Below, one piece after another: positions 1,322 through 16,381 of a DNA stretch of 16,381 nucleotides. The position numbers were made by a program, and so were the translations under genes. Below the pieces are notes generated by a model. The model was not told where the DNA came from. It did not search any database and saw only the letters and a list, made by a program, of their open reading frames with translations. The stretch covers positions 1-16,381 of the forward strand of contig JAWDOO010000009.1 in the NCBI GenBank assembly GCA_046533775.1. The letters run 5' to 3'. Numbering within the stretch: the stretch's first letter is position 1; each line of letters begins with the position of its first letter. The DNA is from Candidatus Nanopusillus sp. Lineage in GTDB: Archaea > Nanobdellota > Nanobdellia > Nanobdellales > Nanobdellaceae.

Positions 1322-1355
1322 CTAAAAAATATAATCAAAAATTTTTAATATTTTT

Positions 1356-3800
1356 CTAGATTAAAAATATTATTGATGCAATTATTCCTACAAGTATTAA
1401 TATATAATTAATATTTTCTGATGCAATTAAAGAAGAATTTTTTGTAGGTCCATTTACAACTAAATTATATTGAGCATTTCCAATATTTTGTCCATTTACA
1501 TTAAAATTAAGTAATAATGAAGAAGATCCAATATATAATGGTAATATATTAAATTGTAATATATATGATTGATTTGGTTGTAATTGATTTATATTTATAT
1601 TATTTAATGATTGTATTGGAATTTGATTATATAATATTTCTGGTACATTTCCTAATTGTAACAAATTTATTGTAATATTATTTAATGTCATATTTCCTAT
1701 ATTTGTTATATTTAATGTTAAAATATATTCTGGATAATCTAAACTAAATTCTAAATTATTTCCAATTGGTCCATATGTAGTATTTATATTAATTGGCTGA
1801 ACATATGCTTTTAATTGAATTATACCATAATAAATATATGTTTGAGCCACATTTAAATTAAATATCTCTGTTACGCAATTAGATTGTCCATTTGTTAATG
1901 TAGAACATACAGTTATATTTCCATTATTTGAATATGGTAATTGTAAATTAAATGAATAATAATTTGTATTTACATTACTATTTGAATATACATTATTATT
2001 ATTATAATATACATTTATTGATTGTATATTTTGATTTGATCCATTTACTGAAATTGTTGTATTTATATTTTGATTTGTTATATTTAATATATTAATATCT
2101 ATAATTGGAACTGTTATTCCTGATGAAGGTATATTTAAGTTAACTGTATTTGAATTAACACAATTTCCATTATAACATCCTTGTGCATATACTGAGTAAC
2201 TTCCAGAATATGAAACAATACATAAAGAATTTATATTTTGAAATTGTGAATATGAATCATAACAATATGGAGAATTATTTACATATAATGTATAATTTTG
2301 AGCACAACCTGTTATATAAATATTATAAGAATTCTGAAAGTTTGAACTTTGCTGAGATGAGATAGAAATTTGCTGACCTATATTATATGTATATGTTGCT
2401 GATGCTGAAGATCCTGAAATTGAAGCTGTCACTGTTACTGAATATGAACCTGGAGGCATTGTTGGAGATGAATTTACATATAATGTTGTTGAACAGGAAG
2501 ATCCGCTAGTAGTACATGATGATGGATTAAGCGAACATGTTATACCAGAAGGTGCTGAACAAGAAAAAGTAACTGTTGTAGAAGCACTACTAGGATTATT
2601 TAAGTTAGCAGTTACTGTTGATGATGTTTGAGTACCTGGACAAACTGTAGAAGAACTTGATGGATTTAATTGAACTGATGAAACTGAAACTGCAGGTTGT
2701 ATAGAAATTGAAGGCATTACATCATTGGGTGGTAATGATCTTAATAAAACCCAATATAAGTATATATTATTACCTGAGCTTTGTTGTCCTATTGTTATTG
2801 GTAAACTAAATGAACCAGGTATTATTGTAGTACTTAATATTTGAGTATAATTTACTAAGAAATATGTATAACTACTAGAGAATCCTATTTCATATATTGT
2901 TGGAGCATAATTATATGTTGTACTTCCTACTCCATTAGTTCCAACAACTAAACCAAATTGACCCGAGTTTCCTGAATTTGGATATGTAAATGCAGCACCA
3001 TCATTATTACCAGCAGCTATAAGTCCCCCACCACAACCAATAAAGTATTCACACATTGAATTTGCTTCACCTACCCCTAATGCTATAATATCCCAACTTG
3101 TACCGCTTGTAGTTGGAATGGAAGCATAAATTTCCAATATATTATTTTGAATATTAAAGTTTACTGTAGTAGTAATACCCTCATTACCTCCACCCCAAGT
3201 AGAAGACGGAATAATTATATAATCTGTTGAAAAGGAAACACTATATTCCTCCCGATATACAGGAGTCCATGATGAAGGTAATGAACTCAAACCTCCAAAA
3301 TTTTGATAATAATTAAATACATCCTGTCCATTATCATACTGAGAAGTACTTAAAACTTGTATAGGCGCACCAACATATGGATAATATTGAGAATAATAAT
3401 TATCACTAGAAGATCCTATATACATAAATATTGTTATCTCTGAATTAGCATTAATTCCTTGAGGTAAATTAATCCACCATACATCACAATATGTATTACC
3501 ATAATTTAATTGACCTTCATACCATGAATATATATTTGGTGAACCTCCAGCAGTTGTGGAAAAATAAACATTTTGTCCGTTTGAATCTATTTCATTAAAT
3601 AATGTCGGATTATTTACATACGCAAAATTATTACCTATATTAATATCTCCATTACATATTGCTATATCCTGTTGGAATGGTTGTGGAGTTGCTTGAGATT
3701 GAGTATTTGTTATAGTAATAGCATACCATCCCTGAGAATACACAAACTTTGATATTAAAATAACTAGCAATCCAAATAACAATATTTTTAATAATTTCAT
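1356..3800 (-). CDS. Large secreted, C-terminally membrane-anchored surface protein (814 aa). The N-terminal half is DUF2341-like plus LamG/ConA-like lectin-type, followed by an S/T/C-rich Ig-like region and an N/Y/I-rich beta-rich region
   Basis: ORF track. The N-terminal signal peptide is MKLLKILLFGLLVILISKFVYS|QG. The pattern WYAITITN...VYF...YSWYEG...VWWINLPQGINANSEITIFMYIG matches the DUF2341 consensus as I remember it. The following DVFNYYQNFGG...SSW resembles the start of a LamG-like domain. There are many N-x-S/T sequons, and the protein ends in the hydrophobic helix YILILVGIIASIIFLI. Confidence 0.8.
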   Translation of the reverse strand: MKLLKILLFGLLVILISKFVYSQGWYAITITNTQSQATPQPFQQDIAICNGDINIGNNFAYVNNPTLFNEIDSNGQNVYFSTTAGGSPNIYSWYEGQLNYGNTYCDVWWINLPQGINANSEITIFMYIGSSSDNYYSQYYPYVGAPIQVLSTSQYDNGQDVFNYYQNFGGLSSLPSSWTPVYREEYSVSFSTDYIIIPSSTWGGGNEGITTTVNFNIQNNILEIYASIPTTSGTSWDIIALGVGEANSMCEYFIGCGGGLIAAGNNDGAAFTYPNSGNSGQFGLVVGTNGVGSTTYNYAPTIYEIGFSSSYTYFLVNYTQILSTTIIPGSFSLPITIGQQSSGNNIYLYWVLLRSLPPNDVMPSISIQPAVSVSSVQLNPSSSSTVCPGTQTSSTVTANLNNPSSASTTVTFSCSAPSGITCSLNPSSCTTSGSSCSTTLYVNSSPTMPPGSYSVTVTASISGSSASATYTYNIGQQISISSQQSSNFQNSYNIYITGCAQNYTLYVNNSPYCYDSYSQFQNINSLCIVSYSGSYSVYAQGCYNGNCVNSNTVNLNIPSSGITVPIIDINILNITNQNINTTISVNGSNQNIQSINVYYNNNNVYSNSNVNTNYYSFNLQLPYSNNGNITVCSTLTNGQSNCVTEIFNLNVAQTYIYYGIIQLKAYVQPININTTYGPIGNNLEFSLDYPEYILTLNITNIGNMTLNNITINLLQLGNVPEILYNQIPIQSLNNININQLQPNQSYILQFNILPLYIGSSSLLLNFNVNGQNIGNAQYNLVVNGPTKNSSLIASENINYILILVGIIASIIFLI

Positions 3801-3823
3801 ATTTTATTATCATAATTACTTAC

Positions 3824-3831
3824 TTATAAAA
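3824..3831 (-). promoter_or_regulatory. Candidate archaeal TATA box (TTTTATAA on the minus strand) for the 814-aa surface protein gene; implies a leaderless mRNA
   Basis: The minus strand reads AAATTTTATAAGTA, with exactly 23 nt between the octamer and the ATG at 3800. The octamer therefore spans -31..-24 relative to the A of the ATG, the canonical TATA position if transcription starts at or next to the ATG. An identical octamer with identical spacing precedes the 641-aa surface protein gene. Caveat: A/T octamers are frequent in this composition. Confidence 0.35.
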
Positions 3832-3884
3832 TTTATCATGAAGTAGAGCTTACATATAAACTTTATATACTAATTTTATTAAAA

Positions 3885-5213
3885 ATGGAAATTGAAATTT
3901 TTCCAATAGGTGGATATTCATATATAGGAAAAAATATGAGTGCAATAAGAATTGATGATAAAATAATTATAATAGATATTGGAATAAATGTAGATAAAGT
4001 ATCTCAATTTGGAGAAAGGGAAGATATAACTAATAAACCATTAAAAGAATTATATGATTTAGATATAATACCTGATGATTCAATTTTAGAAAATTATAAA
4101 GATAAAGTAAAGGCAATAATATTAACACATGGACATTTAGATCATATAGGAGCAGTAAATTTTATTGCACCAAAATATAATGTTCCAATATATGGATCTC
4201 CATATACAATTGAATTAATAAAACAACAAGAAAAAGAATATGGAATTGTTTTACCAAATGATTTAAAGAAAATATCTCCAAATTCTTCAATTAAAATTTC
4301 TGAAGATATTTCAATTAATTTTATTAATATTACTCATTCAATTCCTCAACCTTTAATGATTGATATTCAAACAAATAAAGGTCATATAATATTTTCAGGT
4401 GATTTTAAATTTGATAATTTCCCAATTATTGGTAAAAAACCAGATAAAGAAAAATTAAAGAAAATTGGAAAGGAAGGAGTTTTATTATTAATTTCTGAAA
4501 CAACAAGGGCGGAAGAAAATTCAAAATCACAATCGGAAATTATTGAAAAATATATGTTATATGATGTATTACATTCAATAGATACAAAGGGAATAATTAT
4601 AACAACATTTTCCTCACATATTGCAAGATTAAAATCAATAATTGAATTATCAAAAGAAATAAATAGAAAACCAATATTTATTGGAAGAAGTTTAGGAAAA
4701 TATATTAGTGCAGCAGAAAATATTAATTTATATAATTTTTCTCAAGAGGCGGAAATATATTTTGATCCAAGAGATTATAAAAAAGTTTTGGAAAGAGTAG
4801 AAAAAAATAAGGAAGAATATTTATTAATTGTTACTGGACATCAGGGTGAACCTGGCTCTATTTTAGATAGATTATCAAGGGGAGAATATAATTTTGATCT
4901 AAGTGATACAACAGTAATATTTGCAAATAATATAATTCCACATCCAATAAATGAAGCAAATAGAAAAATATTGGAAGAAAGATTGAAAAGAAAAAAAGCA
5001 GAAATAATAAAAGATATACATGTATCAGGTCATGCAAAAAGTCAGGATCATATAATGTTATTAAAAATGTTAAATCCCGAATATATAATACCAAATCATG
5101 GAGATATAAATAAAAAAGCCTCATATTATAATATTGCATCAGATTATGGATATACATTGGGAGAAGATATATTTTTCCTAGAAGATTATCAGAGAAAAGT
5201 ATTTAATATATAA
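3885..5213 (+). CDS. rnj: Ribonuclease J-like metallo-beta-lactamase/beta-CASP RNase (archaeal type, 442 aa)
   Basis: ORF track. It has the HxHxDH motif in AIILTHGHLDHIGA, an N-terminal IGGYSYIGKNMSAIRIDDKIIIIDIG, the beta-CASP region, a late HVSGHA motif and NHGD near the C-terminus. Length and motif order fit archaeal RNase J. Confidence 0.85.
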   Translation: MEIEIFPIGGYSYIGKNMSAIRIDDKIIIIDIGINVDKVSQFGEREDITNKPLKELYDLDIIPDDSILENYKDKVKAIILTHGHLDHIGAVNFIAPKYNVPIYGSPYTIELIKQQEKEYGIVLPNDLKKISPNSSIKISEDISINFINITHSIPQPLMIDIQTNKGHIIFSGDFKFDNFPIIGKKPDKEKLKKIGKEGVLLLISETTRAEENSKSQSEIIEKYMLYDVLHSIDTKGIIITTFSSHIARLKSIIELSKEINRKPIFIGRSLGKYISAAENINLYNFSQEAEIYFDPRDYKKVLERVEKNKEEYLLIVTGHQGEPGSILDRLSRGEYNFDLSDTTVIFANNIIPHPINEANRKILEERLKRKKAEIIKDIHVSGHAKSQDHIMLLKMLNPEYIIPNHGDINKKASYYNIASDYGYTLGEDIFFLEDYQRKVFNI

Positions 5214-5228
5214 AGTTAATATATTTTT

Positions 5229-5747
5229 ATGAAATCGATACATATTTACATTGAATATATTTTAATAATATTACTATCAGCATTTACATTTTATTTTGTT
5301 TTTACGTGGTGGAATAATAATAAAATATATGCAATAAATTTTTATAACCAAAATAAATTTCAATATGAATCAAAATATATAGAAAATGTATTAAATAATT
5401 TAGAAGATGATTTATATTTTAATATAAATTTTAATTTAAATGGATATGATATATATTGTATAAATAATTTAACATTAATTAAATCTAATAATTTTTGTAA
5501 GACAACATTAAATAATATAACATATCAGGGAGAATTAATATATTCATATGGAAATTATTATGTATATGATCCAAAAATGAATGGATATTATTTATTGGAA
5601 AATAATAATAATATTACATTGTATGGATGTTTTGAGGATTATTTATCATTAATAATATTGACAAATAATTGTACAGGAATATGTTATGGAAATTGCAATT
5701 TAAATATAGTTAAAAATCAAACATCAATATATTCAATAATACAATGA
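5229..5747 (+). CDS. Pilin-like / class III signal peptide candidate: a small Cys- and sequon-rich secreted protein (172 aa)
   Basis: ORF track. The N-terminus is MKS-IHIYIEYILIILLSAFTFYFVF, a short basic leader followed by a hydrophobic helix carrying a Glu (IEYIL), as in archaeal type IV pilins. It sits directly upstream of the pilus ATPase and platform genes, and its stop overlaps the next start by 4 nt. It has six Cys and several N-x-S/T sequons. Confidence 0.5.
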   Translation: MKSIHIYIEYILIILLSAFTFYFVFTWWNNNKIYAINFYNQNKFQYESKYIENVLNNLEDDLYFNINFNLNGYDIYCINNLTLIKSNNFCKTTLNNITYQGELIYSYGNYYVYDPKMNGYYLLENNNNITLYGCFEDYLSLIILTNNCTGICYGNCNLNIVKNQTSIYSIIQ

Positions 5748-5983
5748 AAACACAATTATTATTAGAACAAGTATTATTTATTTTTTTAGTTTTATTATTT
5801 ATATCAGGTTCATTAATATTTTATTATAATTATCTAAATAATTTAAATTATAAAAATTCAATAATAAAAAATCAAATATATAATTTAACATTGGAAGATG
5901 CAAAATTAAATAATCAATCAAATTTATTGTACTATCAAGGTTATTACTATCCAGTTGGTACTATAATAATTAAAAATTCATAA
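5744..5983 (+). CDS. Very small pilin-like protein (79 aa), class III signal peptide candidate
   Basis: ORF track. The N-terminus MKT|QLLLEQVLFIFLVLLFISGSLIFYY has Q at +1 and E at +5 of the putative mature end, resembling the archaeal QxSxE-type and bacterial E5 pilin motifs. It has an ATGA overlap with the upstream pilin-like gene and lies 15 nt upstream of the ATPase gene. Confidence 0.55.
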   Translation: MKTQLLLEQVLFIFLVLLFISGSLIFYYNYLNNLNYKNSIIKNQIYNLTLEDAKLNNQSNLLYYQGYYYPVGTIIIKNS

Positions 5984-5998
5984 GTAGGTTAAAATTAT

Positions 5999-7546
5999 AT
6001 GAAAAAAATTGTTGCAGAAGAAATACTGAAATATTTTGATAATGAAATAAAAAAGGAATCCTTTATACCAGAAATAAGGTCTAACACTGATAAATCAAAG
6101 ATTGATATAATTTATCCACTAATTGGAAAACTTGCATATGCACATATTTATTATGATAATATATCTGAAGAACTCGTATATGAATTACTAGAACCAGAAA
6201 TATCCGATGAAGATAAAATATTAATAGAAAAAATAAAACAATATATTTTGGATGAAATGTACAAAGATCCTGAAGAATTTTTAAATAAAAATAAAGAATA
6301 TGTATTGGCTAAGAAATTGGAAGAATTTGTAAATAGATATAAAATAAAAATAGAAAGAGATGTATTCATAAAATATTACTATTATTTATGGAGAGATATG
6401 TTAGGATATGAAAAAATTCATCCATTATTTTATGATATATTTATTGAGGATATTTCATGTGATGGATATGATATACCAATATATGTACATCATAATAAAT
6501 TTGGAATATTAAGGACAAATATAATTTTATCTAGGGATGAATTAGATAGATTTATAGTAAAATTAGCACAGAAGGCTGGAAAACATATATCATATGCGGA
6601 ACCAATTCTCGATGCAACATTAGATGATGGATCAAGAATAAATGCAACATACTCACAAGAAATTACTACAAATGGTCCAACATTTACAATAAGAAAGTTC
6701 AAAAAACAAATGTTATCATTAGTAGATTTGATAAAATCAAATATGTTAGATTCTGAAGTTGCTGCATATTTATGGACATTAGTAGAATATAGAGCTAATA
6801 TATTAATTGCAGGTTCCACATCTTCTGGAAAAACAACATTATTAAATTCAATTGCTCAATTTATACCACCAGAAGCAAAAGTAATATCTATTGAAGATAC
6901 AAGAGAATTACAATTATATCATGAAAATTGGATTCCTGCAACAACAAGAAGGGGTTTCTTTGTTGGAGATAAATATTATGGGGAAATTGACATGTATAGA
7001 TTATTATCAGAATCTTTTAGACAAAATCCAGATTATGTAATTGTAGGAGAAGTAAGGGGAGAAGAAACATATGTAATGTTCCAAGGAATGGCTTCTGGTC
7101 ATTCTGCATTATCTACTATACATACCGATAGCTGGAGGACATTAATAAGAAGATTAACCACAGCACCAATTAATTTAACTTTAGATCATGTTGCATTATT
7201 AGATGCAGTAGTATTTACAATGAGGGCAAGGAATATTTCTCCCTCCGCTAGAAGAGTAAGAGAAATTGTTGAAGTTGGAAAATATTTAAATGGAAAGATT
7301 GAAAATGAAACAGTTGTAAAATGGAATTTCGAAGATGATACATTTGAGAAAAAAGATTTAGGAAAATATACTGAAGAAACATTAAAATATAGAGTTGGAT
7401 CAAATATAAGTTTTAAAGATTCAATAGAAGAAAAAAAAGAAGTAATAGATTATTTAGTAAAGAAAAATATAAGAGAAAATAAAAAAATTGCTGAATATGT
7501 AAGGCTATATTATACTGATAAAGATTCTTTATTGAGAAAAATATGA
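5999..7546 (+). CDS. Archaeal type IV filament assembly ATPase (FlaI/ArlI / PilB / VirB11 superfamily, 515 aa)
   Basis: ORF track. It has Walker A in LIAGSTSSGKTTLLNS, an Asp box in VISIEDTRELQL, Walker B in PDYVIVGEVRGEE and a His box in GHSALSTIHT. Confidence 0.9.
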   Translation: MKKIVAEEILKYFDNEIKKESFIPEIRSNTDKSKIDIIYPLIGKLAYAHIYYDNISEELVYELLEPEISDEDKILIEKIKQYILDEMYKDPEEFLNKNKEYVLAKKLEEFVNRYKIKIERDVFIKYYYYLWRDMLGYEKIHPLFYDIFIEDISCDGYDIPIYVHHNKFGILRTNIILSRDELDRFIVKLAQKAGKHISYAEPILDATLDDGSRINATYSQEITTNGPTFTIRKFKKQMLSLVDLIKSNMLDSEVAAYLWTLVEYRANILIAGSTSSGKTTLLNSIAQFIPPEAKVISIEDTRELQLYHENWIPATTRRGFFVGDKYYGEIDMYRLLSESFRQNPDYVIVGEVRGEETYVMFQGMASGHSALSTIHTDSWRTLIRRLTTAPINLTLDHVALLDAVVFTMRARNISPSARRVREIVEVGKYLNGKIENETVVKWNFEDDTFEKKDLGKYTEETLKYRVGSNISFKDSIEEKKEVIDYLVKKNIRENKKIAEYVRLYYTDKDSLLRKI

Positions 7547-8376
7547 ACTTTTTAGTAAAAAAATTGTATCCATATTTTAAGGATAAAAAATATGATATAT
7601 TTTATACACAATTTAAAACATCTATTGAAGATTATATAAAAACAACATTGAAATATTCTTTCCTAACATTTATATTATCTTTTATATCTTTATCATTAAT
7701 ATTTATCTTCTATCTAAATTTCTATAATATAGTATTATTTTTCGTAAGTATTTTATTTGGAATTATTGTTGGCTTTTTAACATTTATTTATTTTTATATT
7801 TATCCATCATTAGCAAAGGCAGATTATATAAAAGATATAGAAGATAATTTACCATTTTTTGCATTATATTTTTATTCATATTCAGGTTCCCAAATGAATA
7901 TAATAGATATATTTAAATTATTAAATAAAGAAAAAAGATTTGGAGCAATAAATAAAGAAATTTCATATTTATTAATATTGATTGATAATTTTGGATATGA
8001 TATTTTATCAGCATTATTAGAATTGGCTCAAAAAACACCTTCAGAAAAATTCAAAGAATTTTTATATGGATTAATATCAGTAATTAGATCTGGAGGTTCT
8101 TTAAAAGATTTTGCAAGAATATATGCAAAGCAAAATTTAGAAGAATATGAAATACAATTAAAGGAATATAATGAAAAAGTCAATTTATGGGTAACATTAT
8201 ATGCATTTTTCTTTATAACATTTCCAATGGTATTATTAATTTTAGCATTCTTATTTTCAATTGCATCAGGAAATGCAAATATTTTAAATTCATTATTATT
8301 CTTCTTTATTTTAATTATTCCATTTTCTTATATTACATATTTATATATGATACATATATATCAACCAAAGATTTAG
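7543..8376 (+). CDS. FlaJ/TadC-like type IV filament platform membrane protein with a single T2SSF-like unit (277 aa)
   Basis: ORF track. It has an ATGA overlap with the ATPase gene. The layout is TM pair, cytoplasmic helical segment (NLPFFALYFYSYSGSQMNIIDIF...EFLYGLISVIRSGGSLKDFARIYAKQ), then TM pair, as in one T2SSF repeat. Confidence 0.75.
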   Translation: MNFLVKKLYPYFKDKKYDIFYTQFKTSIEDYIKTTLKYSFLTFILSFISLSLIFIFYLNFYNIVLFFVSILFGIIVGFLTFIYFYIYPSLAKADYIKDIEDNLPFFALYFYSYSGSQMNIIDIFKLLNKEKRFGAINKEISYLLILIDNFGYDILSALLELAQKTPSEKFKEFLYGLISVIRSGGSLKDFARIYAKQNLEEYEIQLKEYNEKVNLWVTLYAFFFITFPMVLLILAFLFSIASGNANILNSLLFFFILIIPFSYITYLYMIHIYQPKI

Positions 8377-8543
8377 AAATTAACGAATCCTTTCTTTGCT
8401 AAATCAATCGCTTCTTTTTTTAATTTTCTAAAACAAGATATATGAAAAATCATCCTTTCACCATTTAAATTTATTATTCTATATTTTTCATCATCATATA
8501 CTGGTCTATTACAATATTTACATTCACCAATTTTATTTCCCAT
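8373..8543 (-). CDS. Small zinc-binding protein candidate (56 aa, CxxC...HxxC)
   Basis: Hand-translated because it is below the ORF-track size cutoff. It reads MGNKIGECKYCNRPVYDDEKYRIINLNGERMIFHISCFRKLKKEAIDLAKKGFVNF*. The ATG is at 8543..8541 and the stop (TAA) at 8375..8373. It fills the otherwise empty gap between the platform gene and EF-2, on the same strand as EF-2. The metal-ligand pattern is C8/C11/H34/C37. Confidence 0.5.
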   Translation of the reverse strand: MGNKIGECKYCNRPVYDDEKYRIINLNGERMIFHISCFRKLKKEAIDLAKKGFVNF

Positions 8544-8573
8544 AAAAAATAATTATTTTTATTATATAAAAAT

Positions 8574-10778
8574 TTAGTGAACCCCTTCAGGTATTCCCTT
8601 TCTTTTTCTAATAGAATCTATTATTTGTTGTTGTAAATCTTTCGGTACTTTTTCATATACCTGATCTTCTAAGAACCAAACACCCCTTCCAGATGTTGCA
8701 GATCTTAATTCGTCTGTAAATCCAAACATATTTGCTACAGGTATCTTTGCCTTAATTACTGCTCTTTCTTCTTCAATATTCATTTCCAATATTTGTCCCC
8801 TTCTTGATTGTAATATTGATGTTACATCCCCAACAGTTTCTGGAGGAGTATCAATCCTTATAACTTGTAATGGTTCATATAATGTTGGTTGTTCAAGAAT
8901 AGCACTCTTTATTGCATCTTTTGTTGCAGGAATTATTTGAGCAGGACCTCTATGAATTGCATCTTCATGTAATACTGCATCAATTAATTTTACTTTCATC
9001 ATTATACCAGGTTCCCATGCTAATGGACCCTGATCCATTACTTCCTTGAATCCTTCCACAATATATTCTATTACTTCTGGCAAATGAACAATACCCCTTG
9101 TCATATCAATCAATACATTTCCATTATGTACCATTATAATTCTCCTTGCTTCTTCCTTATCAAATCCAATTTCATTAAATACTTTCCATAAATCTTCCTT
9201 TTTAATTCTCCCTTCGGGTAATTTTCCTTCCCTAATATATTCCCTCATTTTTTCATATATTTCATATGGTAAAGGTTCAATTTGTATATATATTTTATTA
9301 TGCTTGTTTGGAGACTTTCCTTCATATACTTGTGTAACTCCATTAACAGACTCTCTATAAATTACTATTGGATTTCCAACCTTTACAGGTATTCCAAAAT
9401 CATTTTGTACCCTATATTCTATTATTTGTAAATGTAAATCCCCCAAACCAGATACTAAAATTTCTCCAGTATCTTTTTTCTGCTCAACCTTTATTGTTGG
9501 ATCTTCTCTTGTTAATAGATCTAATGTTTCAATTAATTTTGGCAAATCATTTGGATTCTTTGGTTCAAATGATTTTGTAACTACAGGATCTAACCAGTGC
9601 CTCATTTCTTCAAATGTTTCAACACTTTTTGGATCTTGAACTTTTCCAACAATTGTTTCTCCTGGATATAATCCTCTTATTCCAACTAAAGCAATTATAT
9701 TACCAGCTTTTACAGAATCTACATTTATTCTTTGTATTCCTTTCCATATAGCAACCTGTTGTATTTTTATTTGCCTTCCAGCTTGGATTAAATATACATC
9801 ATCACCTTTTGATAATGTACCTGAAAATATTCTTGCAGTTGCAATTTCTTGTTTTGATACTTTATCAATTATTACATTTGTTACATTTATTACAATTGGT
9901 CCATTTGAATCTAAATTTAACATTGCTTTTCCAACATCTGAATTTATATCCCCCTTCCATATATGAGGAATTCTATATTTTTGAGCTTCAACTGGAGAAG
10001 GTAAATGTCTTATAACCATATCCAATACAACCTTTGCAACAGGTGCCTTTTTTCTCATTTCCTCTTTTAATTTTTCTTTATCTTCTAAAAATTGATTATA
10101 TATTTCAATTATATCTTTAAATGAAACATTATATTTTTTCATAAAAGGTACTGATAATGCCCAATGGAATTTTGCAGATCCAAATGCAACAGATCCATCA
10201 TTTACATTTACATTCCATTTTCCTTTAAATTCTGGAGGAGAATATTTATCAATTAATCTATTTATTTCAATAACTATTTTTCCAATTCTCTCCATAATCT
10301 GTTGTGGAGATAATTTTAATTCTGTAATTGCTCTATCAGCTTTATTTATAAATAATACTGGCTTTACATATTCTTTTAATGCAGTCCTTAATACAGTTTC
10401 TGTTTGTGGCATTATTCCATCAACAAAATCTACAACAACAATTGCACCATCAATTGCTCTAGTAGCTCTAGTAACTTGTCCAGAAAATTCTACATGCCCC
10501 GGAGTATCTATTAAATTTATTAAATAATCTTGATTTTCATAATTATGAACCATTGAAACTGCTGCTCCATATACTGTCATTTCCCTTTCCCTTTCAGTTT
10601 CATGCCACCATGTAAACATTGCCTCACCTGCAAGTTCTTCTGCTAACATTCCTGCACCTGCTAATAAAGAATCTGTCAATGTTGTTTTCCCATGATGTAT
10701 ATGCGCAATTATACCTATATTTCTTATATTATTCGGATTATTCATAACTTGCAATATTCTTTCAGTTAGACTAGCCAT
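8574..10778 (-). CDS. fusA: Archaeal translation elongation factor 2 (aEF-2, 734 aa)
   Basis: ORF track. G1 is AHIHHGKTT, G3 is DTPGHVEF and G4 is NKAD. It also has EAQKYRIPHIWKGD, YRESV, the GKSPNKHNK loop and the diphthamide site HEDAIHRGPAQIIPA (His609, codon 8952..8954). Confidence 0.97.
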   Translation of the reverse strand: MASLTERILQVMNNPNNIRNIGIIAHIHHGKTTLTDSLLAGAGMLAEELAGEAMFTWWHETEREREMTVYGAAVSMVHNYENQDYLINLIDTPGHVEFSGQVTRATRAIDGAIVVVDFVDGIMPQTETVLRTALKEYVKPVLFINKADRAITELKLSPQQIMERIGKIVIEINRLIDKYSPPEFKGKWNVNVNDGSVAFGSAKFHWALSVPFMKKYNVSFKDIIEIYNQFLEDKEKLKEEMRKKAPVAKVVLDMVIRHLPSPVEAQKYRIPHIWKGDINSDVGKAMLNLDSNGPIVINVTNVIIDKVSKQEIATARIFSGTLSKGDDVYLIQAGRQIKIQQVAIWKGIQRINVDSVKAGNIIALVGIRGLYPGETIVGKVQDPKSVETFEEMRHWLDPVVTKSFEPKNPNDLPKLIETLDLLTREDPTIKVEQKKDTGEILVSGLGDLHLQIIEYRVQNDFGIPVKVGNPIVIYRESVNGVTQVYEGKSPNKHNKIYIQIEPLPYEIYEKMREYIREGKLPEGRIKKEDLWKVFNEIGFDKEEARRIIMVHNGNVLIDMTRGIVHLPEVIEYIVEGFKEVMDQGPLAWEPGIMMKVKLIDAVLHEDAIHRGPAQIIPATKDAIKSAILEQPTLYEPLQVIRIDTPPETVGDVTSILQSRRGQILEMNIEEERAVIKAKIPVANMFGFTDELRSATSGRGVWFLEDQVYEKVPKDLQQQIIDSIRKRKGIPEGVH

Positions 10779-10900
10779 TATAATAAAATTAAAGAATAAT
10801 ATTTTAAAATAAATTTTATGATATTACATACATATTAGAAAATAAATATTTTGATAAGTCATTATATCTTATTTTTAAACACAAAAATAATAAATCAAAA

Positions 10901-11077
10901 TTATTTATTAATTTTTAATTCAAAAGCTTTTGCCTGAAATCCTACTTTTCTATGACTTCCATCGCAATATGGTTTATTTTGTGAATTACCACACCTACAT
11001 AAATGATATAATACTTCTCCATTTACCAATATTTCGTATGGTCCATTTTCATATCCCCTTATTACAATTTCTACCAT
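10901..11077 (-). CDS. CDGSH-type iron-sulfur domain mini-protein (58 aa)
   Basis: Hand-translated. It reads [58 protein letters not shown]. The string [16 protein letters not shown] matches the CDGSH consensus C-x-C-x2-S-x3-P-x-C-D-G-S-H exactly. The ATG is at 11077..11075 and the stop at 10903..10901. Confidence 0.8.
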
Positions 11078-11115
11078 TATTAAAACCTTTTAAAAAATCT
11101 TAAAAATATTTTATT

Positions 11116-11709
11116 ATGAGATCTTATTTTTATACAATAATTCTAGGAATAACATCTATATTAATATTATTTTTTATATTTTTATTAAATAATGTAAAAT
11201 TTAATAATAACTATATTTTAGAAAAAACAAATATTATAATTGATAATCAAAATATATCATTATATTTATTGAATATATATGGAAATGGATGTTATTTATA
11301 TAATATTACTGACGGATATTTTATAATAAAAAATGAAGGACCTGGAATAAATTATATAATACCATTAGCAGAATATATTAATACTACTTCATTTATATTT
11401 TGTAATCAAACATTTTATTATAATATAACAATTGAAGAATGTTTACCAATTCCATGTAATATAACATGCGAACATGGAATATTATGTCCAACGATAAAAT
11501 GTATTGAATATTCATTTTGTTCTAATATAACATATTATATTAATATAACATATCCACTAATAATTGTTAATAATGATATATTTTTATATAATAATAATGT
11601 TTATTGCTATTCAAAAAGTTATAATATAATTTATAATAAATTACCTGGAAATTATTTATACAACTTAATATATAATTTAATAAGTTCTATACCAAAAAAT
11701 ATGGTATGA
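11116..11709 (+). CDS. N-terminally anchored, Cys-rich, sequon-rich exported protein (197 aa); possible third pilin-like protein
   Basis: ORF track. The N-terminus is MRS-YFYTIILGITSILILFFIFLL, the same M-[KR]-[ST] plus hydrophobic helix layout as the two pilin-like ORFs at 5229..5983. It has nine Cys (for example CLPIPCNITCEHGILCPTIKC) and many N-x-S/T sequons. Its stop overlaps the Dph6 start (ATGA). Confidence 0.55.
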   Translation: MRSYFYTIILGITSILILFFIFLLNNVKFNNNYILEKTNIIIDNQNISLYLLNIYGNGCYLYNITDGYFIIKNEGPGINYIIPLAEYINTTSFIFCNQTFYYNITIEECLPIPCNITCEHGILCPTIKCIEYSFCSNITYYINITYPLIIVNNDIFLYNNNVYCYSKSYNIIYNKLPGNYLYNLIYNLISSIPKNMV

Positions 11710-12371
11710 AACTTGCAGTATTATATTCTGGAGGAAAAGATTCAAATTATTCATTATATGTTGCATCAAAATATCATGAAATATCTGTACTATTAAATAT
11801 AATTCCAAAAAATAATGAAAGTTATTTATATCATTATATTAATAATAATTTAACTGAATTACAATCAAAAGCATTAAATATACCTATAGAAAGATTTTAT
11901 ATAAATAATAATGAAGAAGAAACATTGCTTGAAGCATTGAAATATTTAAAGGAAAAATATAATATTAATGGAGTTGTTACTGGGGCAATTAGATCTACAT
12001 ATCAAGGATCAAGATTTCAAAGAATATGTAAAATATTAAATCTATGGTGTTTTAATCCATTATGGTTAAAAGATGAAAAAGAATATTTATATGAATTACT
12101 AAAAAGTAATTTTCAATTTATAATTGTTGGATGGTATACATATCCTTTAGATATAAATATTTTGGGAAAAGTTGTTGATGAAAATATAATAAAAAAATTA
12201 ATTGAATATAAAGAAAAATATAAGATAAATATTGCGGGAGAAGGTGGGGAATATGAAACATTTGTTTTATATCAACCATTATTTAAGAAAAGGATAATAA
12301 TAAAAGATTATGAAATAAAGGTAGAAAAAAATTATGCAGAATATATTATAAAGAATGCCTATTTAGAATGA
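11706..12371 (+). CDS. dph6: Diphthine--ammonia ligase (diphthamide synthetase, MJ0570/Dph6 family PP-loop ATPase, 221 aa)
   Basis: ORF track. It has the MKLAVLYSGGKDS PP-loop, ESYLYH, GVVTGAIRSTYQ..R and NIAGEGGEYETFVL. These align along the whole length with the M. jannaschii MJ0570-type sequence as I recall it. Confidence 0.88.
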   Translation: MKLAVLYSGGKDSNYSLYVASKYHEISVLLNIIPKNNESYLYHYINNNLTELQSKALNIPIERFYINNNEEETLLEALKYLKEKYNINGVVTGAIRSTYQGSRFQRICKILNLWCFNPLWLKDEKEYLYELLKSNFQFIIVGWYTYPLDINILGKVVDENIIKKLIEYKEKYKINIAGEGGEYETFVLYQPLFKKRIIIKDYEIKVEKNYAEYIIKNAYLE

Positions 12372-12895
12372 TTGGGATAATTCATACAAATAAAGAAGAA
12401 CTATCAAAATATGAATTTTTATATCCAATAATAAATATTTTAAAAGAATTGAATATTAATTATAAAGTTTTTTCATATAAAGATAAAATAAATGAATATT
12501 TCGAAAAAATAATAATAACAGGTACTGCAATAATGGATTTTGATTATTTAAATTATATAAAAAATTTTGAATTTATAATTGAAAATAATATAAAAACTCT
12601 TGCAATATGTTCTGGAAGCCAAATATTAACAAAATTATTAAATTATGATTTTGAAGATAAAGAATTGATTGGAAAATATTATGTAAGAATAATAAATAAA
12701 GATAAAATAATTGATAAAGATTTTGAAGCATATTTTTTAATAACAAAAATTCCAAAGATTGATGAAAAATTTTATATAATTGGAAAAGTAGAAAATATTC
12801 CTGTATTATATAAATATAGAAATATATATTTTTCATTGTTCCATCCAGAAGTTTTAAATAAAGATATAATAATTAATTTTTTAGAATATATATAG
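12368..12895 (+). CDS. Stand-alone class I glutamine amidotransferase (GuaAA-like, 175 aa)
   Basis: ORF track. It has an ATGA overlap with dph6. The nucleophile elbow is LAICSGSQIL (Cys81; C-x-G-x-Q pattern), and LFHPEV (His159, Glu161) lies near the C-terminus. The size is typical of archaeal GATase subunits. The glycine-rich SGGP segment is degenerate (ITGTA). Confidence 0.72.
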   Translation: MIGIIHTNKEELSKYEFLYPIINILKELNINYKVFSYKDKINEYFEKIIITGTAIMDFDYLNYIKNFEFIIENNIKTLAICSGSQILTKLLNYDFEDKELIGKYYVRIINKDKIIDKDFEAYFLITKIPKIDEKFYIIGKVENIPVLYKYRNIYFSLFHPEVLNKDIIINFLEYI

Positions 12896-12949
12896 CCCCT
12901 ACTAGGGTAACCTTAGATAGATGAAAAAGGTTGAGTTAGTAGGGGTACA
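12895..12949 (+). ncRNA. GC-rich hairpin followed by an ACA box: H/ACA-like sRNA candidate (or a processing/stability hairpin)
   Basis: This is the only GC-rich patch in the window. The lower stem CCCCTACTA (12896-12904) pairs perfectly with TAGTAGGGG (12937-12945), plus a G12895/T12946 wobble. A symmetric internal loop (GGGT / GAGT) follows. The upper stem AACCTT (12909-12914) pairs with AAGGTT (12927-12932), and the 12-nt loop AGATAGATGAAA contains GATGA. ACA at 12947-12949 follows the stem directly and lies 14 nt from the base of the upper stem. The pocket is small for a real pseudouridylation guide. Confidence 0.4.
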
Positions 12950-12951
12950 AA

Positions 12952-12999
12952 ATGAAGAAACCGTCCCAGGCTGAAAAATGATGAATTAAAGCTAACAGA
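12952..12999 (+). ncRNA. C/D box sRNA candidate (2'-O-methylation guide)
   Basis: The layout is C box ATGAAGA (12952-12958), a 12-nt spacer AACCGTCCCAGG, D' CTGA (12971-12974), 3 nt AAA, C' ATGATGA (12978-12984), an 11-nt spacer ATTAAAGCTAA, and a D-like CAGA (12996-12999). Box order, the 12/11-nt guides and the 3-nt D'-C' linker match archaeal C/D sRNA architecture. The terminal C and D boxes are both non-consensus at the positions that normally form the U.U pair (A/A here). Confidence 0.5.
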
Positions 13000-13006
13000 T
13001 AAAAAA

Positions 13007-14932
13007 TTATTCTTCAGCTTTTTCCTTTTCTTTTTTACCTCCCTTTCTTGATTCTATTAATACTGCAGCTATTATTATTATTGCCAATATTACTAATATC
13101 CAGAATATTAATTCTGATGAGGGCAATGATACTGAAGGTACTTGAGATACTGAATATGTTTCATTTAATGAATATAATAATTGTCCTGTTTGTTGATCTA
13201 TTATATTTACATATACTGTTACATTATTACTTTCTGCAGTTACATTCAGTGGTATTTGTTCTGTATATGTACCTCCTATTTGTATTTCTTGTTGTTCTGG
13301 ATATACTTCTCCTCCAACAGCATATGCCTGTATTAATAAGTTATATATCTGTGTTGTATTTGAACTTATTATTAAATATATTGTTGAATTTTGTCCATAT
13401 TTTAATGATATATATCCAACCAAAGATGCACTTATTGGTTGTGGTACTATTACTGTTCCATTTACATATAAATTATATGTATATGTTTGTGATATTCCAT
13501 TATAATTAAATACAAATTCTATTGGATAATATCCTGCTGTTAAATTTCCTGGAATATATATTACTACTGGTAATTGTATTACTTGATTTGGTGATAATGT
13601 TATTGTTGATAATTGTTGGAATATATTTAATTGTGGTGATTCTACTATTGGTTGTACTTGTATATTCATTGGTAAGTTAGATTCTAAATTTGCATATAAT
13701 TCTATAAATTGTCCTGGTTTTACATTAAATGTATTTGTATATACACTTAATACATTTACCGGTTGTATATTTTGTTCATCTACTGTTATTGTATATTTAT
13801 ATTGATATACTTCTACTCCATTTTGATATACATATAATATTATTGTATAATATCCTGGCTGTAATCCTACTGTATTTAATGGTAATATTACCTCTCCCTG
13901 AGAACCTGGAGGTATTATTTGTGAACCTTGTAAATTATATATTAAATCTCCATATTGATCATATAATAACATTTGAACTGTTGCATTTACTGTTTGATAA
14001 CCTGGATTATTTATTAATACTTCTACATTATATATAGAATTTATTAAATTATTCAATGAATTAAAGTTTGGTGATACTGAAATTACTTGTATATTTTGTC
14101 CATTTTGATTATTTGATATATAGAATGATTGTTCTGTTTGTTGTGTCAATACTTGTCCATTAGATAGTACAACATTCAATTGTTCTAATACATACATTTC
14201 TCCTTGTACATTTTCTAAATAATAGTTTGGTATATTTACAGTTAATAAATTTTCTCCTGGTTGTAAATTTACATTTTCTTGTGTTTGGTATATAATATTT
14301 CCTTGAGAATTATATAATGTTAATATTAATGTAGAAGACTGTATATTTGTTTCAACATTTTGTAAATATACTACTGATTGTATATTTATTCCATATTGTT
14401 CTGCTTGTTGTTGTGAAATTGCTTCTGGTAATTGTACTAATGATAATGTCAAATTATATGGTACAAATGTTAAATTATATGTTTGATTTGCTGTTACATA
14501 TTCTAAACCTGATGAATATAATAATGTTACATTTGCCTGTACTGTGAAATTATAATATTGTTCTACTGAACATCCATAATATGTACATGAACTTGTTGAA
14601 CTATACTGTTGTACTAAATTTTCTAATTCTAAAGGATTTACTGATACCTGATATATGTTTAATCCTGTACATACTGATATAGGTTCATAATATTGATATA
14701 TTAATTGTCCATTTGGTGCATATATATTAAAGTACAAATCTGCCTCTTCCGGAGTTTCATTTACTCCATATAACTTTATTATAAATGTTAAATTATTTGC
14801 TGCATTTGCTAATATTGTTTGTGTTTGTGGTTCTATTATTATTTGTTGTGAATATACTCCCAATCCTAATAATACTAATCCTATTAAAAAACTAAACAAT
14901 CTTCTTATTGTTACTACTACTTTGTTATCCAT
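13007..14932 (-). CDS. Large secreted, C-terminally anchored adhesin-like surface protein with diverged repeated beta-sandwich (CARDB/Ig-like) modules (641 aa)
   Basis: ORF track. The signal peptide is RRLFSFLIGLVLLGLGVYS|QQ. A recurring module signature appears four times: NIYAPNGQLIYQY, TLYNSQGNIIYQT, LLYDQYGDLIYNL and NIIDQQTGQLLYSL, each followed by a PG-containing strand. There are at least a dozen N-x-S/T sequons. The C-terminus is a TM helix (LIFWILVILAIIIIAAVLI) plus a basic tail (ESRKGGKKEKEKAEE). Confidence 0.8.
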   Translation of the reverse strand: MDNKVVVTIRRLFSFLIGLVLLGLGVYSQQIIIEPQTQTILANAANNLTFIIKLYGVNETPEEADLYFNIYAPNGQLIYQYYEPISVCTGLNIYQVSVNPLELENLVQQYSSTSSCTYYGCSVEQYYNFTVQANVTLLYSSGLEYVTANQTYNLTFVPYNLTLSLVQLPEAISQQQAEQYGINIQSVVYLQNVETNIQSSTLILTLYNSQGNIIYQTQENVNLQPGENLLTVNIPNYYLENVQGEMYVLEQLNVVLSNGQVLTQQTEQSFYISNNQNGQNIQVISVSPNFNSLNNLINSIYNVEVLINNPGYQTVNATVQMLLYDQYGDLIYNLQGSQIIPPGSQGEVILPLNTVGLQPGYYTIILYVYQNGVEVYQYKYTITVDEQNIQPVNVLSVYTNTFNVKPGQFIELYANLESNLPMNIQVQPIVESPQLNIFQQLSTITLSPNQVIQLPVVIYIPGNLTAGYYPIEFVFNYNGISQTYTYNLYVNGTVIVPQPISASLVGYISLKYGQNSTIYLIISSNTTQIYNLLIQAYAVGGEVYPEQQEIQIGGTYTEQIPLNVTAESNNVTVYVNIIDQQTGQLLYSLNETYSVSQVPSVSLPSSELIFWILVILAIIIIAAVLIESRKGGKKEKEKAEE

Positions 14933-14955
14933 AATTTAATTTATGATAGAAAAAT

Positions 14956-14963
14956 TTATAAAA
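14956..14963 (-). promoter_or_regulatory. Candidate archaeal TATA box (TTTTATAA on the minus strand) for the 641-aa surface protein gene; implies a leaderless mRNA
   Basis: The minus strand reads AACTTTTATAAATT, with exactly 23 nt between the octamer and the ATG at 14932. The octamer and spacing are the same as at 3824-3831 upstream of the other large surface protein gene. Confidence 0.35.
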
Positions 14964-14967
14964 GTTA

Positions 14968-15732
14968 TTACTTGATAGATAATATATCACTATCACCAGG
15001 AAGATATCCTAATATAATATTGTAATCAACTTTAAAAACATTTTCTAACTGTTTTGCAATATCTATTGGTTTTTTATTTCCTGGAATTAATATAACATAT
15101 CTTTTATATTTATCTTTTATACTTTCAGGTACTCCTGGAATAATATTATAATCTTCAAAAGCCAACGCAATTTCCAAATTCACTTTTATATAATTTTTCT
15201 CTCCATATATCATAAAAGATCCTTTTTTTAAATACATTCCAGAAGGTGCCTTTTTAGATACCTGATCTGGATATACATAATATATATCTATAGAAGATAA
15301 CTTATTTTTCCATGCTCTAGAATATGATCCAACAAATTTTGCAGCTTCATATATATCTATTTCACTTGCATTTTTTCCATTTTTTAATATACCAAAGGGG
15401 GATCCTACAATATCTGCATGGAATACTAAATCATTTTTTTCTAAATATTTATTTATAATAATTTCATTTGTAATAGAATCTTTCCCAGCAATTAATAGAA
15501 AATTATTTGTTGTAAACATCCATCTAAATTTCTCATACCATTTTTTATTTCTCTTAATTTCTTCTTTTCTTTTTTCAATAATTATTTTTTCCTCAATATT
15601 ATTTAATTTTTCTTCCAATTCTTTTATTAATTTTTCTATCTTTTGCTTTTTATTCTTTAATTCTTTTATTTTTTCATATATTTCATTTATATTTTCATAT
15701 ATACTTTTTCTAGTATCAATTTTTATTTCCAT
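14968..15732 (-). CDS. NFACT-family (Rqc2/NEMF/FbpA-like) protein, C-terminal half only: coiled-coil helix + NFACT-R (DUF814) + C-terminal domain (254 aa from Met at 15732)
   Basis: ORF track (14968..15810), with the start moved to the internal ATG at 15732 (MEIKIDTRKS...). It has a long K/E-rich helix followed by KKWYEKFRWMFTTNNFLLIAGKDSITNEIIINKYLEKNDLVFHADIVGSPFGILK. This is the characteristic W-[FY]-E-K-F-R-W-F ... D-x-x-F-H-A NFACT-R signature. Confidence 0.85.
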   Translation of the reverse strand: MEIKIDTRKSIYENINEIYEKIKELKNKKQKIEKLIKELEEKLNNIEEKIIIEKRKEEIKRNKKWYEKFRWMFTTNNFLLIAGKDSITNEIIINKYLEKNDLVFHADIVGSPFGILKNGKNASEIDIYEAAKFVGSYSRAWKNKLSSIDIYYVYPDQVSKKAPSGMYLKKGSFMIYGEKNYIKVNLEIALAFEDYNIIPGVPESIKDKYKRYVILIPGNKKPIDIAKQLENVFKVDYNIILGYLPGDSDILSIK

Positions 15733-16381
15733 TTTTCCAACAAATATTATAAAATGCACATTTTTTGCATTTTTCTGAAAATTTCTTTCCAGGATCTTCT
15801 TTTTTATCAATCATATCAATTATTTTATCTTTTATATCAAGTATTTTTTTTATTTCATTATTATTTCTAAACTCTATTTCTATTTTATGATTATCTTTTG
15901 CATATAATAGTATACCTTTCCTTATATCATAATTTGGAAATTCATCCTTTAATAATAAATAATATGAATATAATTGTGTAATATGTTCCCTTCTAAAAAA
16001 TCCAGATTTTATTTCATAAGGTATTATATACTTTTTATATATTTCTAATCTATCTATTCTTCCAACTATATTATATTTTAAAGATGTAACATCAAGTTCC
16101 GTCTTTATTTTTGGTTCTAAGAATTCCCATAATTCTATTCCATATAAATCATTATCTTTCATAAAATTATATACATTTTTTGCTCTATCTTCTATATCTT
16201 TTATTACATAACTATATGCCCTTATTTTTATATCGTTTTTATCTAAATTTAAATTTTTTATTTGTTCTTCAAATTCTTTTATAGATTCTTCCAACAATTT
16301 TATTAAAAAACTATTATATAAATTTAATATTTTTTCATATTCAACAAACTCTTTTATATTAAATATTATTTCTTTCTCTTT
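15716..16381 (-). CDS. Cas4-like PD-(D/E)xK nuclease with a C-terminal Fe-S cysteine cluster; the N-terminus lies beyond the window
   Basis: ORF track (15716..16297, TTG-initiated). The same frame remains open to the window edge (KEKEIIFNIKEFVEYEKILNLYNSFLIKLLEES...), so the true start is probably upstream of 16381. The nuclease core is VGRIDRL...IPYEIKSG...QLYSYYLL (D, ExK, QxxxY), and the C-terminus is CKKCAFYNIC (C-x2-C-x5-C). The expected N-terminal fourth Cys is not in the visible part. Confidence 0.78.
   Translation of the reverse strand, partial: KEKEIIFNIKEFVEYEKILNLYNSFLIKLLEESIKEFEEQIKNLNLDKNDIKIRAYSYVIKDIEDRAKNVYNFMKDNDLYGIELWEFLEPKIKTELDVTSLKYNIVGRIDRLEIYKKYIIPYEIKSGFFRREHITQLYSYYLLLKDEFPNYDIRKGILLYAKDNHKIEIEFRNNNEIKKILDIKDKIIDMIDKKEDPGKKFSEKCKKCAFYNICWKNGNKN

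Follow-up and report, generated by a model that had tools for sequence, protein, structure and literature searches.

A class-I glutamine amidotransferase gene overlapping dph6 in a nanoarchaeal genome: a proposed glutamine-dependent route to diphthamide in Archaea

The DNA described here is a stretch of 16,381 nucleotides (nt) from a Candidatus Nanopusillus sp. assembly (GCA_046533775.1, contig JAWDOO010000009.1, positions 1 to 16,381 of the forward strand), and this whole stretch is referred to as the window. The base composition of the window is approximately 23% G+C, and its predicted proteins share 69–97% identity with their counterparts in Nanoarchaeota of the Nanopusillaceae type (Nanobdella aerobiophila, strain YN1 and metagenome-assembled genomes (MAGs) related to them). 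The genes of interest belong to a chain of three plus-strand open reading frames (ORFs) located at 11116–11709, 11706–12371 and 12368–12895, which are joined to one another through 4-nt overlaps. The second ORF (11706–12371) is dph6 and encodes a diphthine--ammonia ligase of 221 amino acids (aa), a PP-loop ATP pyrophosphatase. The third ORF (12368–12895) encodes a class-I glutamine amidotransferase (GATase) of 175 aa. The two genes share the sequence ATGA at 12368–12371, in which the TGA stop codon of dph6 overlaps the ATG start codon of the GATase gene. Diphthamide, a modified form of histidine in translation elongation factor 2 (EF-2), occurs in all eukaryotes and in nearly all archaea. The evidence presented below suggests that the two overlapping genes encode the synthetase subunit and the proposed glutaminase subunit of a glutamine-dependent diphthamide synthetase.

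The dph6 gene product scores 242.9 bits on the Dph6_archaeal model TIGR03679, for which the equivalog cut-off is 197.3 bits, and 202.7 bits on PF01902 against a cut-off of 23.2 (E 6.9e-60). It carries the motifs SGGKDS, ESYLYH, STYQGSR and GEGGEYETFVL, the first of which is the PP-loop ATP-binding signature (residues 8–13, encoded at 11727–11744 on the plus strand). An earlier note on this DNA, made from its letters alone, had named the ORF as Dph6 on the strength of the SGGKDS and GEGGEYETFVL motifs, and had also read the ATGA overlap with the GATase gene; the equivalog score bears out the first of these, and the second stands as read. Three features described as specific to Dph6, namely the SY and YQ positions and an E.GGE.E motif (PMC3541065), are kept in an alignment of natural Dph6–GATase fusions (alignment A5, described below), in which the PP-loop positions are at least 90% conserved. 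In a sample of linked or fused Dph6 proteins drawn from nine lineages, 10/10 exceed the Dph6_archaeal cut-off, with scores of 220–289 bits. By these measures of sequence the window protein is an orthologue of the characterised Dph6 enzymes. It shares the PP-loop and EGGE motifs with Dph6 of yeast (YLR143W) and with MJ0570, PF0828 and PH1257, and the same final amidation step is assumed for it.

The assignment of the 175-aa product to the class-I GATases is based on its fold, its catalytic residues and a family profile. The protein is a marginal match to PF00117 (23.4 bits against a gathering threshold of 22.8), while its family relatives and the GATase domains of the fusions score 40–77 bits on this model. 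AlphaFold2 produced a model with a mean predicted local distance difference test score (pLDDT) of 88.5 and a predicted template modelling score (pTM) of 0.87. A Foldseek comparison of this model identified the class-I GATases 2a9v, 1o1y, 2d7j and 1qdl_B (template modelling (TM) scores of 0.76–0.80, E-values down to 2e-12), and the top structural matches are GuaAA-type proteins with 18–24% identity. The window GATase retains Cys81, Gln85, His159 and Glu161 in GxCxGxQ and HPE contexts. Cys81, the predicted catalytic nucleophile, lies within the sequence LAICSGSQ (codon 12608–12610), and the remainder of the triad is provided by the His159-Pro160-Glu161 codons (12842–12850) within FHPE. The same residues were counted in 135 stand-alone members of the family (alignment A2) and in 106 fusions (A5). 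The Cys is present in 129/135 stand-alone proteins and 101/106 fusions, the His in 132/135 and 105/106, the Glu in 135/135 and 105/106, and the Gln of GxCxGxQ in 117/135 and 93/106, respectively. The catalytic residues of the GATase are, as judged from these alignments, under selection, and the GATase-1 catalytic context that the earlier note had recognised around Cys81, His159 and Glu161 is present in the window protein and kept in its relatives.

GuaAA, the glutaminase subunit of archaeal GMP synthase, is the nearest characterised relative of this GATase both by sequence and by fold, and public annotations of family members read 'GMP synthase (glutamine-hydrolysing)' or 'GMP synthase-like'. 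Both points favour a simple explanation in which the gene is an ordinary guaAA that lies beside dph6 by chance in a compact genome. The profile scores argue otherwise. Against cut-offs of 198 and 172 bits on the GuaAA models (NF001975/TIGR00888), the window GATase reaches 24.7 and 24.1 bits, respectively, and its scores on all the curated NCBIfam GATase models are far under the cut-offs (PdxT, for example, 27.6 against 181). A family hidden Markov model (HMM), A3, was built from 34 diverse Dph6-linked GATases that include no nanoarchaeal sequence. The window GATase scores 135 bits on A3, while the true GuaAA proteins of Pyrococcus horikoshii and Methanocaldococcus jannaschii score approximately 77 bits. 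All 34 A3 members match the GuaAA model best, far below its cut-off (best E 1.4e-26), and no curated NCBIfam model claims the family in a scan of these 34 proteins. The family also differs from GuaAA in its motifs, as the SGGP of GuaAA is replaced by (S/C)G-T-x-L (Gly52 in 134/135 and Thr53 in 107/135 stand-alone members) and the tail after HPEV is shorter. When placed relative to GuaAA by HMM score, the GATase thus belongs to a distinct family. In addition, nucleotide biosynthesis is reportedly missing from the terrestrial Nanoarchaeota Nst1 and YN1 (PMC11420986, PMC3655853), which also speaks against a role as GuaAA; for Nst1, an orphan 'putative glutamine amidotransferase' was noted (PMC3655853). 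Apart from the linked GATase, no GuaAA- or GuaAB-like ORFs were found in the retrieved loci, a result that covers these loci and not whole genomes.

The distribution of the pair also bears on the chance explanation. A word-indexed search with the window GATase returned nine relatives, all of them nanoarchaeal. One of these loci (L006) encodes a GATase that is only 42% identical and has unrelated surroundings (PIN/MazE and AP endonuclease genes), and the overlapping dph6–GATase pair is retained. An exhaustive GATase profile search identified 641 representatives at the 50% identity level; 312 reach E <= 1e-10, and nearly all are 165–200 aa in length. The A3 profile gave 412 confirmed relatives when run against one genome per GTDB species. 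Linkage was counted in the best 80 of these 412 loci, which were retrieved through the GATase profile, with upstream dph6 genes detected by a Dph6 HMM on six-frame ORFs. A dph6 gene lies immediately upstream on the same strand in 78/80 loci. In the other two the GATase gene is located within 375 and approximately 190 nt of a contig end, so the upstream region is lost, and dph6 is present in 78/78 evaluable loci. The 80 loci come from Bathyarchaeia, Nitrososphaeria, Archaeoglobus, Methanosarcinales, Methanocella, Methanomicrobiales, Thermococci, Theionarchaea, Hydrothermarchaeota, Thermoplasmata, Woese-, Pace-, Nano- and Aenigmatarchaeota. Many of these hosts are large-genomed, with contigs of 2–3 Mb, and the presence of the linkage in large genomes such as those of Archaeoglobus, Methanocella and Bathyarchaeia argues against a chance neighbourhood produced by genome compaction.

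The junction itself is conserved. An exact 4-nt overlap of the dph6 stop and GATase start codons, in the form ATGA, GTGA or TTGA, is found in 71/84 evaluable loci. Of the remaining loci, four are slightly offset (-26, -10, +10 and +14 nt), six have inserts of 0.2–3 kb and come mostly from DPANN lineages (Woese-, Pace- and Nanoarchaeota), and three lack a placeable start. The arrangement is far beyond chance because the same overlap recurs in so many of the evaluable loci, and the synteny and overlap on which the earlier note had placed weight are kept in relatives far outside the Nanoarchaeota. The distance matrices of paired Dph6 and GATase proteins are correlated (r = 0.81), with 0/999 permutations as high in a Mantel test, which adds sequence-level support for co-evolution of the two proteins. 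A third conserved neighbour was sought, including Dph2, Dph5 and EF-2, and none was found; by ORF clustering, no other gene is common to more than 16/80 loci.

Several Woese- and Pacearchaeota loci contain a conserved ORF of approximately 82 aa between dph6 and the GATase gene, with the motif YSEIGFGN.SFLSTE ... KFKLLFGI (L053 5750–5998, L063 1632–1877, L072 5733–5990). Further ORFs of approximately 90–170 aa in such loci resemble GNAT acetyltransferases by eye (L072 5299–5754, L085 5351–5851, L057 3423–3701). The pair is also found on contigs of MAGs labelled as bacterial, namely L015 (Acidiferrales), L074 (Limnocylindrales) and L079 (Omnitrophota), and the family member P0329 is labelled Chloroflexi. 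These contigs are probably binning contaminants, since the junction in L015 is nearly identical to those of Bathyarchaeia.

In addition to the two-gene arrangement, Dph6 and the GATase occur as natural fusions. Four long matches of the profile search (400–470 aa) are single chains with an N-terminal Dph6 and a C-terminal GATase. A search seeded with these fusions returned more than 100 clusters at 90% identity that contain PF01902, PF28410 and PF00117 and are 388–480 aa in length. Many of the sources are Methanothrix/Methanosaeta MAGs, and Micrarchaeota, Aenigmarchaeota and Woesearchaeota are also represented. The names given to them in annotations are 'diphthine--ammonia ligase', 'TIGR00289 family protein' or 'GMP synthase subunit A'. 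The two-domain arrangement (domains of approximately 225 and 185 residues) was modelled on P0220, a fusion of 433 aa that is called as one ORF on a contig of 3.0 Mb (L087). AlphaFold2, supplied with 106 fusion sequences, gave a model with pLDDT 94.1 and pTM 0.92 (92.8–94.1 pLDDT across the five models), in which only the linker at approximately residues 228–250 is of low confidence. A pTM of 0.92 for a chain with two such domains implies that their mutual arrangement is fixed with confidence, and a defined interface between the domains of the fusion is predicted. The N-terminal domain superposes on the Dph6 crystal structures 2d13 and 3rk1 (TM 0.95, 39–43% identity) and the C-terminal domain on GuaAA-type GATases; comparison of P0220 with the PDB gave no entry that spans both domains.

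More than 100 covalent fusions to Dph6 are difficult to reconcile with a guaAA that happens to lie next to dph6. Considered together with the linkage and the GuaAA scores far below cut-off, they make that explanation, which the earlier note had named as its trivial alternative, extremely improbable; it is effectively refuted and was rejected here. The GATase is instead very likely a dedicated functional partner of Dph6.

Two further observations concern the fusions. In the precomputed Pfam list of one protein, P0265 (689 aa), Dph6 and GATase stand together with several methyltransferase families (among them PF13847, PF13489 and PF08241); this protein might link a methylation step with the module for amidation, or it might have arisen as an artefact of gene calling. 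On the L087 contig, a gene for a CbiA/CobQ-type (GATase_3) amidotransferase (6408–7925) is located directly upstream of the fusion gene on the same strand, which is probably a coincidence.

The Dph6–GATase pair resembles the archaeal two-subunit GMP synthase of M. jannaschii and P. horikoshii (7d95, 1wl8), in which a glutaminase of approximately 185 aa with a Cys-His-Glu triad serves an adenylating PP-loop enzyme. It differs in that the partner is Dph6 rather than GuaAB and the proposed acceptor is a modified histidine on EF-2 rather than xanthosine monophosphate. The order of genes and of fused domains is synthetase followed by GATase, the reverse of that in fused GuaA. Dph6 enzymes that have been characterised or modelled are described as dependent on ammonia, whereas here a dedicated predicted glutaminase is co-encoded with or fused to the enzyme. 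Modules that might provide Dph6 with NH3 were proposed earlier by de Crecy-Lagard et al. (2012, PMC3541065), in the form of AsnB-DUF71 fusions and of the RidA domains of eukaryotic Dph6. The AsnB-DUF71 fusions are found in few Archaea and consist of an N-terminal class-II (N-terminal nucleophile, Ntn) glutamine amidotransferase domain with a second PP-loop domain of the Asn-synthetase type (PMC3541065). The present system is similar to that proposal in that the ammonia for diphthine would be made by an attached module and not drawn from a free pool. It is distinct from it in having a class-I GATase with a catalytic triad, which is C-terminal or encoded by a separate coupled gene and is phylogenetically widespread. 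A class-I GATase partner of Dph6 is not mentioned in PMC3541065, and full-text literature searches on diphthamide or Dph6 together with glutamine amidotransferase found no paper that links a class-I GATase to Dph6, in agreement with the earlier note, whose author knew of no description of the pairing. That a glutaminase might feed Dph6 was, as a general idea, already published in 2012, and the class-I GATase partner, as recognised here from sequence, is apparently new.

In the proposed mechanism, the two overlapping genes would encode the two subunits, or in some lineages the single chain, of a glutamine-dependent diphthamide synthetase. Dph6, as the PP-loop ATPase, would adenylate the diphthine carboxylate on His609 of archaeal EF-2 (aEF-2). 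The class-I GATase is predicted to hydrolyse glutamine through a thioester on Cys81, aided by His159 and Glu161. The resulting NH3 would pass inside a Dph6–GATase complex, which we infer also for the unfused proteins, to the acyl-adenylate to give diphthamide, AMP and pyrophosphate. The ATGA overlap would couple the translation of dph6 to that of the GATase gene and favour 1:1 production of the two proteins. It is probable that the GATase supplies glutamine-derived ammonia for the amidation of diphthine, which is the role that the earlier note had suggested for it in place of service to GuaAB. The linkage, the overlap, the more than 100 fusions, the separation of the family from GuaAA and the pTM of the fusion model all support this role. 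The likely benefit is that the cell need not rely on free ammonium, for instance in a nanoarchaeon that depends on a host and has no metabolism for the assimilation of ammonia.

The proposed protein substrate is encoded in the window. The aEF-2 gene (8574–10778, minus strand) encodes a protein of 734 aa, identified from its translation and the position of the target motif, and the target His609 lies within the sequence AIHRGPAQ (codon 8952–8954, minus strand). The gene is divergent to dph6, and the two gene starts are 928 nt apart. The earlier note had correctly reported an aEF-2 gene with this histidine about 0.9 kb from dph6; the end of the gene that faces dph6 is its start and not, as had been written, its end. 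The aEF-2 gene is a neighbour of dph6 only in Nanopusillaceae/Nanobdella loci.

A different acceptor has also to be considered, in which a Dph6-like protein and its GATase would amidate some substrate that is not EF-2 diphthine. A second DUF71 subfamily, for which a role in B12 salvage has been proposed, is the precedent for this, and the CbiA/CobQ-type gene that precedes the fusion gene in the 3.0-Mb genome could be taken in its favour. The scores of the window Dph6 and of the 10/10 sampled linked Dph6 proteins above the Dph6_archaeal cut-off oppose this idea, as does the retention in the fusions of the SY, YQ and E.GGE.E features that the 2012 study (PMC3541065) gives as Dph6-specific. The window genome is moreover of a symbiont type in the roughly 0.7-Mb class without cofactor synthesis, and the EF-2 target histidine is encoded in the window itself. 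On these grounds a substrate other than EF-2 is very unlikely and was rejected, and EF-2 diphthine is retained as the predicted acceptor.

Several findings weigh against an ammonia-donating GATase as a general and essential partner of Dph6. When metagenomes were scanned with the window Dph6, only near-identical loci (89–97%) were returned. In two of them, L106 (Ga0209739_100916, 3663–3830) and L107 (Ga0080005_110794), where Dph6 is 90% identical, an interior part of the GATase gene is deleted in frame while dph6 is intact. The 55-aa remnant consists of approximately 40 N-terminal and 15 C-terminal residues, and the catalytic core is gone. Approximately 4–5% of the family members in alignments A2 and A5 are without the catalytic Cys and have Gly in its place, and P0009 (L006 8343–8882) has FSPE for FHPE, with Ser replacing the catalytic His. 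Judged from their sequences, the Cys-less members and P0009 may be inactive glutaminase subunits that have been kept beside dph6. The family also has SG-T in place of the SGGP of GuaAA. The deletion in L106 and L107 and the members without Cys or His suggest that the GATase is accessory, or is non-catalytic in some lineages. An accessory role would be consistent with the behaviour of other amidotransferase synthetases, as the synthetase domains of GMP synthase and NAD synthetase are also able to use free ammonium. For Dph6 itself, the work cited in PMC3585130 has the yeast enzyme active in vitro with ATP and ammonium, and a glutaminase is therefore not intrinsically required.

The same substitutions raise the question of whether a GATase-fold protein could act with Dph6 on EF-2 without donating ammonia, as a hydrolase, a deamidase or a non-catalytic scaffold or activator. 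As a hydrolase, it could be a functional analogue of eukaryotic Dph7 that acts on over-methylated diphthine by removing a methyl ester. In favour of such a protein, no homologue of Dph7 is present in Archaea, where only Dph2, Dph5 and Dph6 are recognised (PMC6143161). PF07722 (peptidase C26 / gamma-glutamyl hydrolase) appears in the precomputed Pfam lists of many members, and three of eight members that were scanned directly match it near its cut-off. Together with the members lacking the nucleophile Cys or the His and the altered SGGP motif, these matches are the case for a partner that is not a donor. Most members, however, keep the full glutaminase signature, including the Gln of GxCxGxQ, and their closest relatives are all true glutaminases. 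The canonical design of an amidotransferase joins an adenylating PP-loop enzyme to a class-I GATase, and the chemistry of Dph6 needs NH3, which is exactly what a GATase makes. A non-donor role is for these reasons unlikely. A more specific version, in which the GATase-fold partner performs a fourth catalytic step of archaeal diphthamide synthesis, either a Dph7-like de-esterification before amidation or a reversal or proofreading reaction, is slightly less likely still; if true, it would bring diphthamide pathway chemistry that is new to Archaea. The donation of glutamine-derived ammonia to Dph6 remains the favoured function.

If this function is correct, it would add a fourth component to a pathway that has been described in Archaea as consisting of Dph2, Dph5 and Dph6 only, with nitrogen taken from free ammonia (2018 survey, PMC6143161), and the component would be present in at least 412 GTDB species genomes. 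Where the ammonia for diphthamide comes from has been recognised as a loose end of the pathway since 2012 (PMC3541065), and many archaea would complete the diphthamide of EF-2 with glutamine-derived rather than free ammonia. The function would also explain why minimal nanoarchaeal genomes keep a 'putative glutamine amidotransferase' (PMC3655853). The labels 'GMP synthase (glutamine-hydrolysing)' or 'GMP synthase-like' stand on thousands of database entries, and false purine-pathway calls are possible in reconstructions of DPANN and other archaeal genomes. A glutamine amidotransferase that acts on a residue of a folded protein would be, to our knowledge, a rare case. The natural single-chain fusions offer an easy reagent for a direct test.

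The first gene of the three-gene unit (11116–11709, plus strand) encodes a protein of 197 aa with a hydrophobic N-terminal segment and a Cys-rich composition. Its stop codon and the start codon of dph6 share the ATGA at 11706–11709. Scans against Pfam and NCBIfam gave no match for this protein. The whole three-gene unit is syntenic between the window and both Nanobdella and YN1, where the 197-aa ORF is present upstream of dph6; in L006 and in other lineages it is absent from this upstream position, and it is a lineage-specific member of the unit. A small ORF of 58 aa (10901–11077, minus strand) is located between the aEF-2 gene and the 197-aa ORF, and its counterpart in Nanobdella and YN1 is annotated with PF09360 (zf-CDGSH).

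Immediately 3' of the GATase stop codon is a G+C-rich block of approximately 100 nt (12896–13001). Scans of the window with Rfam at gathering thresholds and with ARAGORN returned no matches. The block is kept nearly base for base in Nanobdella and YN1, and the intergenic DNA around it is not alignable. It contains a hairpin, CCCCTACTA...TAGTAGGGG, with the inner stem AACCTT/AAGGTT and compensatory changes in the outer stem, and the plus-strand fold has a z-score of -3.1. The 3' half (12948–13001) exhibits sub-threshold matches to many archaeal C/D-box small RNA (sRNA) families and carries AUGAUGA and CUGA boxes. The block is thus a candidate for an unannotated C/D-box sRNA that is preceded by a structured element.

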